Below are positions 15,462 through 29,295 of a stretch of 64,000 nucleotides of DNA, in pieces (the stretch's first letter is position 1; each line of letters starts with the position of its first letter). The stretch is from a virus, in IMG/VR virus record IMGVR_UViG_3300028920_000043, positions 1-64,000 of that record, one strand, 5' to 3'. The notes below the pieces were generated by a model. It saw only the letters and a program-made list of their open reading frames with translations. It did no database searches and was not told the DNA's origin. Position numbers and translations under genes: made by a program.

Positions 15462-15888
15462 CCTCTTTCTCCTTTGCCTTCAATAAGTATTCATCCGGTT
15501 CTGGACAGTTATGGCAAATCCAACTCTTGAACACTTCACGATCTTTTGGAATCAATGCTCGATAAAGATTCATTGCTATCTTTATATTTGCATGATGTCC
15601 CCTGATAATTATTTCCCCCGCGTCTACTTTTCGTTTGAATATGAACCGCGCCTGTTTAATTATGTCCTCCTTAATACCCTCCCCATACTTCGCTTTTATC
15701 TTTCGTTTGATATCCGCATCAGTCATATTTGGACTTCTCGGCAATAACTCAGTAGTTATATACCACATCTTATGGCGTGATTTTCCATGCCTCTTTTTAC
15801 TGTGTCTGCGCCTTTCGGGCAAAGGGACGCCGGCCTCTTCCAACTTTTCTTTCGTGAATTCTTTTAGCGAGTTATGTGTTGATTGCAT
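15454..15888 (-). CDS. Hypothetical basic protein
   Basis: 144 aa, AGGAGG RBS. Confidence 0.6.
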   Translation of the reverse strand: MQSTHNSLKEFTKEKLEEAGVPLPERRRHSKKRHGKSRHKMWYITTELLPRSPNMTDADIKRKIKAKYGEGIKEDIIKQARFIFKRKVDAGEIIIRGHHANIKIAMNLYRALIPKDREVFKSWICHNCPEPDEYLLKAKEKEDE

Positions 15889-23579: not shown

Positions 23580-23638
23580 TTTATATCTCCTCAAAATAAA
23601 ATGAATGTTTACGCGCCGGGTACGCGGGTTTATTGATC

Positions 23639-23881
23639 TTACAGAAACTGAATGTCTGTCATCTTCTCAACAATGTCCAGGAAAGAAATAGCGTCCTGTT
23701 CAGTTTCAAAATCATAGGACGTCTCCCTACCACTCTCTTCGTGATAGTGAGCAACTACATATGTAAACTTTCCATCATCATCATACTCCACTATGGTACT
23801 TATGCATCCTTCCTTCTCGCGCTTGCATACCATCCGCGCCTTTCCAATCGCTTCCAATTCATTCTTTTTCTCAAACAACAC
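23639..23881 (-). CDS. Hypothetical acidic protein, first gene after the hammerhead
   Basis: GAGGAGGTG RBS at 23886-23894. Confidence 0.6.
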   Translation of the reverse strand: MLFEKKNELEAIGKARMVCKREKEGCISTIVEYDDDGKFTYVVAHYHEESGRETSYDFETEQDAISFLDIVEKMTDIQFL

Positions 23882-23907
23882 AATTCACCTCCTCTAAAAA
23901 ATGTTAT

Positions 23908-23980
23908 ATGGCTGTCTCATCAGTACCGCGGCACCACCCGCGATATATGAGCGCCCAAACAAGCGCGCTCATTTCAACAA
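23908..23980 (-). ncRNA. Type II hammerhead ribozyme
   Basis: Minus strand: TTGTT-GAAA-TGAGCGC(loop)GCGCTCA-TA-TATCGCGG(GTGGTG)CCGCGGTA-CTGATGA-GACAG-CCAT. All core nucleotides and three stems are present; loop I can pair with the 3' GCCAT (pseudoknot); predicted cleavage between 23946 and 23945. Confidence 0.9.
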
Positions 23981-24039
23981 GAAGGATTTGAAGTATTTCT
24001 TTTTCCTATTCAACAGGTATCCGATAACGCCTTCAACGT

Positions 24040-24583
24040 TTCGGTGATCAGGAATCCTTGTTGTAATACGTCCAGGCTGAATTGACTTACATGGCTAACA
24101 TGATGATTGCTGTCCGTGACCGCCGCGCCGATCACAATTAAATCTTCTTCGCGGTTTATTTTGAATCATCATAAAACGCCAACGCTCGACCTACTCACAC
24201 CAAAATGCCGCTCTCACTTTCTCGTGGGTGCTTTCGCATCATTCAAAACAAGGCTTGCTAATCCAACCCCTGCCCGACCTTGGAGGACGTGTCCCTATTC
24301 TAGTCTCCTACTTCCTTACTCGCCGTTGTCAATGTATTGTGGGCCGCGCTTACCCAATCGCTTCGCTTCGCGTTTTTTGCCATCGGCATTTATTGACAAC
24401 CATCAGCTTTGGTTTTCAGATTTCGATACCGTCCAACTTCGTCTAGCGCTGTCCGCCGCGCTGCATCGAGCAACTCCCAACTTGGCTTTGTGTTTTTAAT
24501 GTGCGTTTTCCGCGCCGCTTGCACTTGCGCGCTCGCCTTGTCTTCGTTGCTTATATTGTTGTCAATGATCACCTTCCCGCTTC
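24040..24583 (-). ncRNA. Candidate large structured ncRNA (~540 nt)
   Basis: No credible ORF; 5' GGTGATCA pairs with 3' TGATCACC; several 7-9-bp internal helices; GCAA and GAAA tetraloops and G-U pairs favour the minus strand; TATGAT -10-like box just upstream. Confidence 0.55.
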
Positions 24584-24731
24584 AATATAATCATACCTTG
24601 TAAATGAACTAGATCCACCTTAAAATCATAAAAATTTCCGGACATAATAATAATGTATAATGAAAATATTAGGAATTTCTTCCTAAAATATTCTATATAA
24701 ACAGTTAGGACAAAATACCGGAATTTGAAGG

Positions 24732-24755
24732 AAAAGGTGTGTTTTCACACCTTTT
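24732..24755 (-). terminator. Intrinsic terminator at the end of the replication operon
   Basis: AAAAGGTGTG-AAAA-CACACCTTTT overlapping the stop codon of the primase Zn-finger gene. Confidence 0.65.
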
Positions 24756-25371
24756 TAGATACCCGTGTTTTTCGGGTGTTTTGACGTGTTTTGCCGCGTT
24801 TGGGGACGGGATCATACATACCAAATATAGCACGGGAATACTGTAGGAATCGCCGCACTCGCTTGGGAGTTACTCTCATGGATTCAAATAAGTCTTCCAC
24901 CTCCTCCAACAAGTATAAGTATATCGAACCAAGATAATATCCTACTCTCTTCTCATGCTTTACATACAGTTTCAATACTTCTTGGATTACTTCATGTTTC
25001 AATGTCTCTTGGATTTCATTGTAGTAAGTTTTGATAGGCTGGTATTCTGGATACTCTGATTTCTCTACTTTCAATAAATCATCTTTTGATATCTTGACGC
25101 CTGCCCACTTTGCGGCCTTTCTCAATGCATCCTTGAATTCCAATCCATCCTTTATCTGAATTAGATTTATTACATCACCACGCTTGCCGCATCCAAAGCA
25201 ATTGAAACGAGAACCATCCGCAAAGATAGAAAACGATGCTTCCGCTTCTTGATGGAACGGGCATCGTATCTTCTGCTTGCCAGCGTTTGATTTTATCTCT
25301 ATGCCGTAGCGCTCAAGGGCTTGGATCACTGACAAGCGATCCTTGATTCTTCTTATTTGATTTTCTAACAT
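24745..25371 (-). CDS. DnaG-type CHC2 zinc-finger protein (no TOPRIM domain)
   Basis: CPFHQE...SF.I...FNCFGCGKRGDVI...F.DAL..AA; only 208 aa. Confidence 0.82.
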   Translation of the reverse strand: MLENQIRRIKDRLSVIQALERYGIEIKSNAGKQKIRCPFHQEAEASFSIFADGSRFNCFGCGKRGDVINLIQIKDGLEFKDALRKAAKWAGVKISKDDLLKVEKSEYPEYQPIKTYYNEIQETLKHEVIQEVLKLYVKHEKRVGYYLGSIYLYLLEEVEDLFESMRVTPKRVRRFLQYSRAIFGMYDPVPKRGKTRQNTRKTRVSKKV

Positions 25372-26855
25372 TAGTCTTCTGAAGCAAAGGAATCGTCATC
25401 TTCAAATAATTGTTTCTCAATATCTTTTTCCAAGGAGTCTGCATCAGCTTTCTTCAGCTCCTTATCCACTCCCAACTTCGCGTTTACTTCTTCGTCTTTC
25501 AATATATCAGGACCGACCAAGTTAGTTGAGAAACGCTGTTGCGTGAATCTACCCTTCAAACATATATCTCCACCACGATTCTTTGCCAGGCCTATATTAA
25601 CCAATCCGGATGGTCTATGTGCCTCTCCTACGAATAACCATGGCATTGCATCCGCTGTTCTTTCTGCAATAGATGTCTCACTGAAATCATCCATTAAATA
25701 AAACCCACCACGATCCCGCGCTCTTCGTTTACCGTCCCTACTGATCTGCCATGCTGACAATATCGGTATTCCTTTTCCTTCGTTGAAGCTCAATGCCAAC
25801 TCTTTTGTATCCTCTAATAATCCTGACTGTTCATAACGCTTGTTCCCTGTTACCTTTTTGGGAGCTACCAACTGCAAATAATCAATGAATACCGCATCAA
25901 TGTTTATTGAGTAATGACAATAGTTCAGCATATCGCGTATAGACCATACTGTCGTATTTGCTGGTGCTTGCCATATGATAAACTTACCACGTTTCATATC
26001 CATCCAACTTCTTATTGTTCTCTTATATCTTTTATATTCCTTCGGCATCAATTCGCCTTTACTCAATCGTGAATAATTGACACCAATCGTTCTTTGTCTT
26101 ATATAGTTTGAATGACAGCACTGTAGCCTTCGCTTCACTTGATCCTTGGTCTCTTCCAATGTTACAAATAAAACATTATGGCCTTCCGCTACAGCATTGC
26201 GTGCCACATTAATCATGGTAGTTGTTTTTCCTTCAGATGTGAACGCTCCCAGTAGCCATAGATTACTCGGATATAATCCTCCTGTAAGATTATCCCAAAG
26301 CTGAATACCGGTCGGTATGTGTTTCTTATGTTGTTTAAGCAGATCTTCATACTCGTCTATACTATTTACAAAGTCATCATCTGTATCTATCAATTGATCT
26401 TCTTGTGGAGACTGTCCCCGAATATCCATAAGCCCCTCGGTCATTAACCGCTCAGCCTTATCCGGATCCTTATCCTCCTCATTAGCCATTACTACTTCAT
26501 AAAGTTTCTTATTGATTAAGCGCCGTTTGTATTCTCGCTTAAGCGCATCAAGTAAAAACTCAAACTGATTACTTGACAGCTCGTCTATCTTTGCCAGCTC
26601 TGTGAAAAAGATAGTCAGCTTCTCACGCGTCTTTGGCTTCTTTATCGTTCCCAAATACGTCTCGAAACTTTCAAGATCCATATGCTTACCTGTACGCCTG
26701 TGGTAATTTCGGATCTTATTGAATACCGCTCTTGCTATCTTTGAATAAAAATACTTTGAGCTTATTCCTTTTAATCCTGCTAACCGATGGGGTTGCTCCA
26801 ATAATCCAAATATTATTTGAAGCTCTATCATCGTGAAGTCGTGTTCATCCGCCAT
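25371..26855 (-). CDS. DnaB-like replicative helicase
   Basis: IPTG...TGGL, Walker A AFTSEGKTT, LEE, IDYLQL, QISR, KNRGG. Confidence 0.92.
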   Translation of the reverse strand: MADEHDFTMIELQIIFGLLEQPHRLAGLKGISSKYFYSKIARAVFNKIRNYHRRTGKHMDLESFETYLGTIKKPKTREKLTIFFTELAKIDELSSNQFEFLLDALKREYKRRLINKKLYEVVMANEEDKDPDKAERLMTEGLMDIRGQSPQEDQLIDTDDDFVNSIDEYEDLLKQHKKHIPTGIQLWDNLTGGLYPSNLWLLGAFTSEGKTTTMINVARNAVAEGHNVLFVTLEETKDQVKRRLQCCHSNYIRQRTIGVNYSRLSKGELMPKEYKRYKRTIRSWMDMKRGKFIIWQAPANTTVWSIRDMLNYCHYSINIDAVFIDYLQLVAPKKVTGNKRYEQSGLLEDTKELALSFNEGKGIPILSAWQISRDGKRRARDRGGFYLMDDFSETSIAERTADAMPWLFVGEAHRPSGLVNIGLAKNRGGDICLKGRFTQQRFSTNLVGPDILKDEEVNAKLGVDKELKKADADSLEKDIEKQLFEDDDSFASED

Positions 26856-26865
26856 TGTTGTTTTC

Positions 26866-29295
26866 CTATTTCTTCGTCTTTACGATTCTATTATCTTTCC
26901 ATTCAGCAATCTTATCTCCCCAGTTCCGCATAATCTCAATATCAATCTCTAACGGAACTATCAACCAAGGAAATTCGAACTGCTCCATCTCTTCCTTCAG
27001 CATTTTACAACACCACTTCACTTCGTTTTTTGGCACATCCAATACCACCGAATCGTGAATAGTAAATACTAATCGTGATTTCTTTTTCTCTTTCTGTATT
27101 CGTAATATAATTCTATCTAGAGCCATCAATGTAATATCAGATGCTGTTGACTGAATTACATGATTAACTGCCATCCGTTGAGCCTCTGCTCGTTTGAACT
27201 TATTATCTGATCTAATATCAGGCAAGCGCCGTCTGCGTCCGAATAAACTGGAAACATAAATCTTCTCTTTAACTGTCCTATGAATACGTCCGATATATCT
27301 TTTTACTCCTGCATAACGCACAAAGTAATCTCGTCTGAATTGCTCAGCGCGGTCCACTGATATCTTAAGACTCTGGGCTAATCCTCTTGCCTGCCGTCCA
27401 TAGTTTAATCCGAAACTGACCGCGCCCTTCGCTTCCTGTCTCTGATCTTTTGTTACTTCATCATACTCAACGTTGAACATAGCCGCCGCGGCCATTCTAT
27501 GAGCATCCAAGCCCTCTTTATAGATCTTAATCAATCTCTCATCCTTCGCGGCGCATGCCATTATCCTCAACTCCAATTGAGAATAATCAGCATTGATTAT
27601 GTAGTTCCCTTCACGCGGCCGCACCATCCTCTTGATTTCTTTGTCTCGCGGAAAGTTCTGACTGTTCGGCTTCTCCGAGGACAGCCTACCCGTTACTGTC
27701 TTGCATAAGTTATAAGTGGTATGGACTCTACCATCCTCACCACGCCAATCAAGTGCTGGCCCTATATAGGTCGAAAGCATTTTATTTACTTTCGATAATT
27801 TTATAAGAAGTGTAATTAGTTTTGGATATTTATTCTGAAATAATTTTAATGCCTCAACTGATGTTGAAGGCAATCCAGAATCCGTTCTGTGCTCTGGAGA
27901 CTCAGGACACTTCAGTTCCTTATAAATCAAATAGCGCACTTGCTGATCCGAGTCAGGATTAAAGCGCTTCTTGAAATGCATTCCAGTTCTTTTAACCGGA
28001 TCCAAATGCCACAGCATGGACTGTGCTCTCTTCTGAGCTAACGAATACTTTCTAGTTAATCTTGAAATGTGATCCACGTCCAATTCAATGCCAGTCAGTT
28101 CCATGAATCCCAATGCTCTACTTGCCGGCATCAATATGTCACTCATTACTCTGAAGAACTTCTTGTCCACAGACAATGCCTTAAGCTCTAGTTCCAGTAT
28201 CCGAAATGTAGCATCAACATCTGCACAGTTATAACAAAGTAATTTATCTTCAGGTACCGAATCCAATCGGTCCTTATAGGGCTGGAGCTCCTCATCATAA
28301 TTTCCCATATCCGTATATAGTCGCGCTAACTGTTTCAAGCTAGGCATTGCATAAGTCTCATCCATCAAGTAATGCCCAAGCTGTGTATCCCATTGACAAT
28401 ATCCAACCGTCACTCCAAACTTGAAAAGATACTTACAATCGAACTGCGCGTTATGCCCTACCAACTTTCCTTTTCGTTTCTTAAAAAATAAATTCAACCA
28501 GCGAAGTCTTTTCTTGTAGGACAAAGCGCCGATAGTTGATTTCTTCAATAAGAATCCTGTGCCTGTTCTGGATTTCGTGGAAAATGCAATAGATAATAAT
28601 CTGGCTCTGCTTGCAAGGGGATCCAATCCTACAGTTTCTATGTCAAACGTTATCCAATTCTCTTTCCTTACCAATTGAACTAAGAAACGTTTTACTTCCG
28701 CATCGGATTCTAATATAGTATAGTTTCTCTTTCCCTGTGTCGCTTGTCCTTTTCCTGTTTGTAAGTAACGCTTCACCAACTTCAAATCTTTTATTACTGA
28801 ATCCTTAGCAGACGCATTATACAAAAGATATGCCGGATGAAATGTTGCAAATAATTTAGCGCCTTCAAACGTTCCGAGATCCTCCAATCGTTGTTTTGAA
28901 ATCCCAGTACGGCCTGTCAGTGCTTGTAAAGGAGTGTCTCCTAGCATCACTACCACTTTCGGTTTATAATCTCTGATTTCTTTTTTCAATCTGTCGAGAC
29001 ACGCCTTGATTTCTTTTTGCTTTGGTTTTCTATTATTCTCTGGTCTGCATGCCACCGCATTTGTAATATAGATCTTGGAAAGATTGAACTTCAGTTCCTT
29101 TATTAATTTTTTCAACATGTTTCCTGCGTCACCGATGAATACCTTTCCTTTAATGTCCTCATTCTTTCCCGGAGCTTCCCCCACAAACATGATGTCTGGA
29201 TGATCCGTGCATCCGCGTCCTTGAATATTAGGAGTCTTACACGTCTTATATAAATCGCACTTCATACAATCTGATCTAACATCTATGAATGGCAC
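26866..29295 (-). CDS. Family A DNA polymerase with N-terminal family-4 uracil-DNA glycosylase domain and 3'-5' exonuclease
   Basis: UDG: CxxC..C, GEAPG, C-RP-NR-P, FHPAYLL. Exo: FDIET, GHNAQFD, YNCADV. Pol: TGRLSS..PN.QN, DYSQLELR, HDS. Confidence 0.95.
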   Translation of the reverse strand: MPFIDVRSDCMKCDLYKTCKTPNIQGRGCTDHPDIMFVGEAPGKNEDIKGKVFIGDAGNMLKKLIKELKFNLSKIYITNAVACRPENNRKPKQKEIKACLDRLKKEIRDYKPKVVVMLGDTPLQALTGRTGISKQRLEDLGTFEGAKLFATFHPAYLLYNASAKDSVIKDLKLVKRYLQTGKGQATQGKRNYTILESDAEVKRFLVQLVRKENWITFDIETVGLDPLASRARLLSIAFSTKSRTGTGFLLKKSTIGALSYKKRLRWLNLFFKKRKGKLVGHNAQFDCKYLFKFGVTVGYCQWDTQLGHYLMDETYAMPSLKQLARLYTDMGNYDEELQPYKDRLDSVPEDKLLCYNCADVDATFRILELELKALSVDKKFFRVMSDILMPASRALGFMELTGIELDVDHISRLTRKYSLAQKRAQSMLWHLDPVKRTGMHFKKRFNPDSDQQVRYLIYKELKCPESPEHRTDSGLPSTSVEALKLFQNKYPKLITLLIKLSKVNKMLSTYIGPALDWRGEDGRVHTTYNLCKTVTGRLSSEKPNSQNFPRDKEIKRMVRPREGNYIINADYSQLELRIMACAAKDERLIKIYKEGLDAHRMAAAAMFNVEYDEVTKDQRQEAKGAVSFGLNYGRQARGLAQSLKISVDRAEQFRRDYFVRYAGVKRYIGRIHRTVKEKIYVSSLFGRRRRLPDIRSDNKFKRAEAQRMAVNHVIQSTASDITLMALDRIILRIQKEKKKSRLVFTIHDSVVLDVPKNEVKWCCKMLKEEMEQFEFPWLIVPLEIDIEIMRNWGDKIAEWKDNRIVKTKK

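Follow-up and report, generated by a model that had tools for sequence, protein, structure and literature searches.

A conserved non-coding element with a covariation-supported pseudoknot follows the replication genes in two distantly related phages

To our knowledge, few large structured RNAs are known from phages, and the functions of those that are, ROOL and GOLLD, are unknown. ColE1 RNA II is a structured pre-primer of ~550 nt used by DNA polymerase I, and together with the promoter-dependent origins of T7 and T4 it provides a precedent for origin transcripts. The pRNA of phi29, ~170 nt long, is encoded at the end of its genome and functions in packaging. ROOL (RF03087) and GOLLD (RF01998) are large phage RNAs of unknown function that are often found near tRNA islands of phages or prophages and form RNA-only cages (PMC12286853). 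For phage hammerhead ribozymes, a role in dividing long transcripts into units has been proposed (Perreault et al. 2011, PMC3088659).

We analyzed the first 64 kb (64,000 nt, hereafter the window) of IMG/VR virus record IMGVR_UViG_3300028920_000043, which comprises 111,210 bp and is ~80% complete by estimate. The ORF map placed all long ORFs on the minus strand, where a UDG-PolA fusion (26866-29295), a DnaB-type helicase (25371-26855) and a 208-aa protein with the DnaG zinc ribbon only (DnaG-Zn; 24745-25371) are followed by a gap, by small ORFs without family matches, and then by a MoxR ATPase and a vWA protein. In the 111,210 bp of the record, no stretch free of minus-strand ORFs of at least 75 aa is longer than the gap (23882-24744), as the original prediction had proposed, and the GC content of the gap is 49-50% compared to 42% for the genome. 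The DnaG-Zn "primase" consists of the DnaG zinc ribbon plus ~110 aa, and the catalytic primase domains DNAG_N, Toprim_2, Toprim_4 and Prim-Pol were absent in six-frame searches of the whole 111-kb record (~80% complete). GC skew was monotonic across the genome, without an origin signal. The sole mid-distance relative with the gap that we retrieved was IMG/VR contig 3300013103_000005 (76 kb; hereafter L003), in which genes for a clamp loader, PCNA, PolA, DnaB and an equally short DnaG-Zn protein (197 aa) precede a gap of ~690 nt.

The two copies of the gap were searched against Rfam with cmscan, using the gathering score for the window and E ≤ 10 for positions 23600-25000 and for L003 15150-15900. 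The results showed a match to the hammerhead only, in the window, which agrees with the original prediction of an undescribed RNA. The comparison with the ROOL and GOLLD classes made at that time did not hold, since neither covariance model matched even at E ≤ 10 and ARAGORN detected no tRNA or tmRNA gene in the 64-kb window. Similarly, no tmRNA or tRNA-like match was obtained with Rfam or ARAGORN, and neither Intron_gpII nor group-II-D1D4 matched in the gap. As a putative RNA, the element resembles both ROOL and GOLLD in being phage-carried, non-coding, >400 nt long and endowed with a pseudoknot, with no known protein partner (PMC12286853). It differs from ROOL in lacking an RF03087 match, in its replication-gene neighbors (DnaB, DnaG-Zn and small ORFs) and in having two members, and from GOLLD in lacking a match to RF01998 (the conserved 3' region) and a tRNA context, again with replication-gene neighbors. 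Unlike ROOL and GOLLD, for which an elaborate fold and oligomers are described, the element is known from its sequence and from covariation in its 5' domain alone. Its likeness to the hammerhead-delimited transcript units of phages (PMC3088659) lies in a type II ribozyme on the transcribed strand, situated between two units of a long one-directional transcript. Here, however, the unit ahead of the ribozyme would be non-coding and conserved instead of being an mRNA, the ribozyme is single in the record, and L003 has none. ColE1 RNA II is comparable in size, in being structured, in its position next to replication functions of a replicon with a family A polymerase, and in its G-rich segment, but homology is not expected and the predicted ribozyme-cut end of the element could not prime. 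The pRNA of phi29 is likewise structured, encoded by a phage and active as a free RNA together with the phage machinery, as we propose for the element, which has no Rfam match.

Sampling of this lineage is sparse, and L003 was the one real relative among 39 loci obtained in a PolA-alignment search. At the level of PolA there were two mid-distance relatives, with ~53-54% (L003, also designated P0006) and 50% (P0007, on a 15-kb Logan contig) amino acid identity. Locus searches with the single primase or helicase protein returned no relatives, the DnaG-Zn protein had three homologs, all distant, and the helicase was at most 26% identical to proteins of GenBank phages by tblastn; no GenBank phage matched the region by blastn. 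The proteins upstream of the gap were 29-63% identical between the window phage and L003, and the 6.5 kb downstream of it contained zero homologous proteins. Exact-pattern scans of the conserved blocks against viral_contigs, metagenome_contigs and genome_contigs yielded the L003 contig alone among the matches listed, the rest being chance. A covariance model of the 5' domain (R1) found no third member among 38 PolA-UDG viral records; it scored L003 at 179.6 bits, which is expected because L003 is part of the model. The family therefore has two members, the window phage and L003, in the collections searched. Recurrent pattern matches in metagenomes corresponded to a multi-copy group II intron unrelated to the RNA element (contigs L267, L272, L304, L307, L264 and L268), which has the pattern GGTCGG...GGGGTTGG...GCGAAAG in common with it by chance; group II intron models did detect introns in the chance-pattern contigs. 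CheckV rated the 76-kb L003 contig 18% complete, which implies a genome of several hundred kb, and the window record 80% complete at 111 kb. It may be that the two genomes are of very different size, or that one completeness estimate is off.

Comparison of the two gaps revealed a conserved core of ~548 nt on the minus strand of the window (24004..24551), homologous to L003 15344-15756 (~413 nt), with about ten colinear identical blocks of 8-14 nt. The shared blocks are, in order, AAAAACACAAAG, CGGCGGACAG, CGAAAUC, GGCGAGUA, AAGGUCGG, GGGGUUGG, GAUGCGAAAG, UGAGUAGGUC, GAUCGG, GGACAG and GGAUACCUG. Chained colinearly, exact matches of at least 8 nt added up to 92 nt at best, compared to a mean of 33 nt and a maximum of 69 nt in shuffled sequences (0/300). 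Over 361 aligned columns the gaps were 57% identical. By comparison, four-fold synonymous sites at identical residues of PolA, DnaB and DnaG-Zn were saturated, at 32-36% identity (random: ~26%), and first codon positions of PolA and DnaB were 60-62% identical. Purifying selection therefore acts on the nucleotide sequence of the gap, with a strength similar to that seen for the replication proteins. The conserved blocks A-J, the P1 helix, the S1/S2 pseudoknot and the P2 hairpin are all present, in fixed order, in both copies. All conserved blocks differ from one another except GGACAG, and there are no iterons. Judged by this comparison, the conserved non-coding element with its predicted RNA structure is real.

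The sequence alignment of the 5' domain (A3) was unambiguous, and four helices in it were assessed for compensatory changes. The predicted domain (24469..24551, minus strand) is closed by the 6-bp helix P1 (24551-24546 with 24474-24469), which encloses an H-type pseudoknot formed by two interleaving helices, S1 (24531-24527 with 24515-24511; five pairs, two compensatory changes) and S2 (24526-24520 with 24505-24499; seven pairs, two compensatory changes). The conserved A-rich block AAAAACACAAAG (24497-24486) lies 3' of S2. It is followed by the P2 hairpin (24445..24462; 24462-24458 with 24449-24445), which has two compensatory changes and an 8-nt loop, GGCGGACA, identical in both phages. A candidate 3-bp helix, P2b (24427-24425 with 24404-24402), in which two of the three pairs are compensatory, surrounds block CGAAAUCnGAAAnCC; it is tentative and has a competing long-range partner. 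In L003, P1 is a perfect helix of 17 bp (15344-60 with 15411-27) whose sequence is unrelated to that of P1 in the window. Taken together, S1, S2, P2 and P2b comprise 20 pairs (40 cells), of which 92.5% pair, and eight of the 20 pairs were changed on both sides with pairing kept, with no one-sided change. In slid controls, in which the 3' partner was moved by 1-3 columns, pairing fell to 25-49% with 0-2 double changes; with a two-row alignment the floor of the shuffle control is ~1/256. All these counts are small because there are just two sequences, and the covariation reaches the first ~150 nt, i.e. the 5' third, only. Additionally, the L003 5' domain had a folding energy of z = -3.75. The supported helices are pure Watson-Crick, without G-U pairs, so the RNA strand is assigned from context only. 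The covariation proposed as a check on the original prediction was thus found in the 5' domain, including the pseudoknot. The local hairpin GCGC-GCAA-GUGC, put forward in the same prediction, conflicts with the covariation-supported pseudoknot.

The central domain (24186..24324, minus strand) contains the conserved blocks GGCGAGUA (24324-17), AAGGUCGG (24281-74), GGGGUUGG (24270-63), CCUUG (24253-49) and GAGUAGGUC (24196-88), together with the GNRA hairpin UGC-GAAA-GCA (24238-29). Two alternative helices fit the conserved G-rich block GGUCGGnCnGGGGUUGG. The 3' domain (24004..24185, minus strand) contains GAUCGG (24133-28), GGACAG (24115-10) and GGAUACCUG (24022-14), and it is interrupted by a window-only insertion of ~87 nt (24109-24023). 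In each phage, ACCUG offers block GAGUAGGU a complementary partner, with no covariation. A further window-only insertion of ~76 nt (24325..24400, minus strand), absent from L003, carries a perfect 9-bp stem (24400-24392 with 24333-24325) enclosing ~58 nt, and its local fold had z = -2.5. The arm 24392-24400 had originally been paired with 24558-24566; its most plausible partner is instead the local segment 24325-24333.

Every complementary pair listed in the original prediction is present in the sequence, and perfect inverted pairs are enriched between 24040 and 24600: seven of at least 8 nt, compared to 1.5 ± 1.2 in shuffled sequences (0/500 dinucleotide shuffles reach seven), and three of at least 9 nt, compared to 0.37 (P = 0.002). 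Of the long-range pairs, the proposed closing helix (24566-73 with 24043-50) and three others fall within window-only insertions or the non-conserved leader, and may be real peripheral helices of the window copy. The folding energy of the window copy did not beat that of shuffled sequences (z = +0.59 for 23980-24600, +1.4 for 24552-24010), which formally amounts to one of the refuting outcomes named in the original prediction; we did not treat this result as decisive because the comparative evidence is stronger. When the minimum-energy structure of a single copy was moved to the other copy, 58-59% of its pairs were canonical compared to 26-49% in slid controls, and changed pairs were kept no oftener than in those controls. 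A whole-length RNAalifold consensus overfits with two sequences. Since the transfer signal is weak and the consensus overfits, we propose no full secondary structure, and the "ornate" global fold first suggested is not established. We therefore limit the claim to a structured 5' domain and a conserved remainder of unsolved pairing.

Upstream, a perfect 10-bp hairpin (24732..24755, minus strand) overlaps the stop of the DnaG-Zn gene, and L003 has a hairpin likewise placed after its DnaG-Zn gene. A terminator had been predicted at this site; the hairpin itself is there, whereas a consensus terminator scan made no call, and it is possibly a weak or bidirectional terminator. Between the hairpin and the element lies an AT-rich spacer (24600..24731, minus strand; ~31% GC), which ranks in the top three of the genome for AT content and is the presumed promoter or regulatory region of the RNA. 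Within this otherwise diverged spacer stands the 14-nt motif TTTTATGATTTTAA (24633-24620, minus strand), which is identical in L003 (15237-15250) and unique in the 111-kb genome; it is possibly a promoter, start-site or origin element. A consensus scan found no sigma-70-like promoter on the minus strand of the window, and the TATGAT box at ~24590 named in the original prediction is not kept in L003. In L003, a promoter-like site lies directly upstream of TTTTATGATTTTAA.

Downstream, a type II hammerhead (RF02276) was identified at 23979-23906 on the minus strand, scoring 41.1 bits against the Rfam gathering score of 37. The match is full-length (1-66), with the core CUGAUGA and GAAA intact and stems I and III loop-closed, and it is the one and only hammerhead in the 111-kb record. 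Because the GUC triplet of the model aligns to AUA at 23948-23946, the cut is predicted after A23946, the same position as originally proposed. An A-rich linker of ~25 nt separates the last conserved block from the ribozyme, which sits ~15 nt before the RBS of the downstream ORF 23639-23881. After the predicted cut, the upstream RNA would end in the stem III hairpin and a 2',3'-cyclic phosphate, ~606 nt from P1, and the stem I hairpin, the RBS and ORF 23639-23881 would pass to a 5'-OH mRNA. The size of the element, counted as a core of ~550 nt or as the ~606 nt between the first conserved helix and the predicted cut, is near the figure given in the original prediction. L003 contains no hammerhead in its 76 kb and no other Rfam ribozyme; at the position of the hammerhead it has two long perfect hairpins (15765-15786 and 15785-15816) before the next RBS. 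The ribozyme is therefore a feature of the lineage and not of the family, so that release by the ribozyme, plausible in the window phage, is not a conserved property. Segment 24053-24067, in the window-only 3' insertion, is complementary (11/12, in two registers) to the hammerhead stem II strand and GAAA core (23971-23988, minus strand), and such pairing could keep the ribozyme from cutting until the RNA adopts another fold. The L003 copy has a pyrimidine-rich insertion (15628-15645) that shows 11-bp complementarity with the RBS of the next ORF (15848-15858) and is missing in the window copy.

In both phages the element comes immediately after the PolA, DnaB and DnaG-Zn genes, at a position that is fixed. 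Its retention at the same place in a distant relative, together with the covariation-supported pseudoknot in part of it, makes it look like a new, rare structured RNA, and the finding is real and probably new. Since the downstream genes are not conserved, the RNA appears to belong with the replication module. As a whole, we consider it reasonably probable that the gap encodes a processed, trans-acting structured RNA of an undescribed family, associated with the replication genes. According to this model, transcription on the gene strand would start in the conserved AT-rich spacer or read through the DnaG-Zn hairpin, and in the window phage self-cleavage by the hammerhead after A23946 would free the 3' end. 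The released RNA would then act in trans in its folded form, by scaffolding a protein of the phage or the host or by assembling from RNA alone, and would work with the replication module rather than with the downstream genes. We infer the trans role and the link to replication from position alone.

A gene in the gap is imaginable in two forms. Nothing but the zinc ribbon is left in the DnaG-like protein upstream, and a lost catalytic half could persist as a remnant; alternatively, a small protein could be encoded by the 60-aa ORF (24390-24572), and a 130-aa ORF is present on the plus strand. However, L003 has the same short DnaG-Zn protein followed by the gap, and a six-frame profile search with stops read through detected no DnaG catalytic (DNAG_N) or Toprim remnant in the gap, from which we conclude that the gap is not the decayed half of a primase. 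Each minus-strand frame of the gap contains at least eight stops. Between the window and L003 the reading frame shifts between conserved blocks, no conserved peptide was found in any translated frame of the gap, and the 60-aa ORF gave no alignment at E ≤ 100 with the ORF over the homologous L003 stretch. With no frame conserved in L003, the gap is non-coding as originally proposed, and a decayed or small gene is highly improbable and largely refuted. A purely DNA-level element, i.e. protein-binding sites or single-strand initiation hairpins without a functional RNA, would fit the place beside the helicase and primase-like genes, the two GGACAG copies in each phage, and the all-Watson-Crick helices, which could form in single-stranded DNA of either strand. 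Such an element is nevertheless disfavored by the interleaving of S1 and S2 as a pseudoknot in which both helices covary; the GNRA hairpin, the purine-rich conserved loops and the ribozyme all lie on the gene strand, and ten differing blocks over 400 nt are unlike repeated binding sites. We regard it as very unlikely.

An origin-of-replication transcript would require the AT-rich spacer to unwind and the structured, G-rich RNA to serve as a persistent hybrid or, after processing, as a leading-strand primer for PolA. Several features are in line with this: in both phages the element adjoins the genes for DnaB and DnaG-Zn, the spacer directly upstream is one of the genome's three richest in AT and carries the conserved 14-mer, block GGUCGGnCnGGGGUUGG is conserved and G-rich, and a family A polymerase is present while no catalytic primase domain is recognizable in six frames of the 111-kb record. 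That record is ~80% complete, however, so the primase may be elsewhere. The blocks all differ save for the two GGACAG copies and form no iterons, the monotonic GC skew is uninformative, a hammerhead-cut 3' end bears a cyclic phosphate and cannot prime, and an R-loop primer needs neither a pseudoknot nor a conserved hairpin loop, though RNA II is also structured. On balance an origin transcript is unlikely. A cis-acting leader or spacer of the downstream operon, controlling its translation, stability or read-through without any role as a free RNA, is unlikely to much the same degree, if slightly more so. The element stands after a terminator-like hairpin and ahead of the next genes, with which it is probably co-transcribed, and both the complementarity of the L003 insertion (~15628-15645) to the next RBS over 11 bp and that of window segment 24053-24067 to the hammerhead stem II and core, which could gate cleavage, would suit regulation in cis. 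Each of these two stretches is nevertheless limited to one lineage, and the downstream genes are unrelated between the phages, which makes a leader less likely, whereas conservation of the element equals that at first codon positions of PolA. The ribozyme would also detach the window element from the mRNA, and 400-550 nt far exceeds known leaders of such type.

Under the preferred reading of a processed, trans-acting RNA, an unrelated family tied by position to replisome genes instead of tRNA islands would provide a second genomic context from which the function of large phage RNAs could be guessed. Its rarity, with two members in the searched collections, restricts how certain the finding is and how far it reaches. 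The lineage is itself unusual in combining a UDG-PolA fusion and DnaB with a zinc-ribbon-only DnaG, and its record has no detectable catalytic primase; the conserved RNA is therefore a concrete candidate for an RNA-dependent step of replication. It is quite unlikely that the element founds a new class of large structured phage RNAs in the replication apparatus, which would supply or position a primer, or would scaffold the helicase and the zinc-ribbon-only "primase", with the hammerhead setting its 3' end. Additionally, GGACAG occurs twice per RNA (window: 24450-24456 and 24110-24115; L003: 15442-15447 and 15735-15740), one copy in the invariant P2 loop and the other in the 3' domain, and the paired copies could be two sites for one partner.
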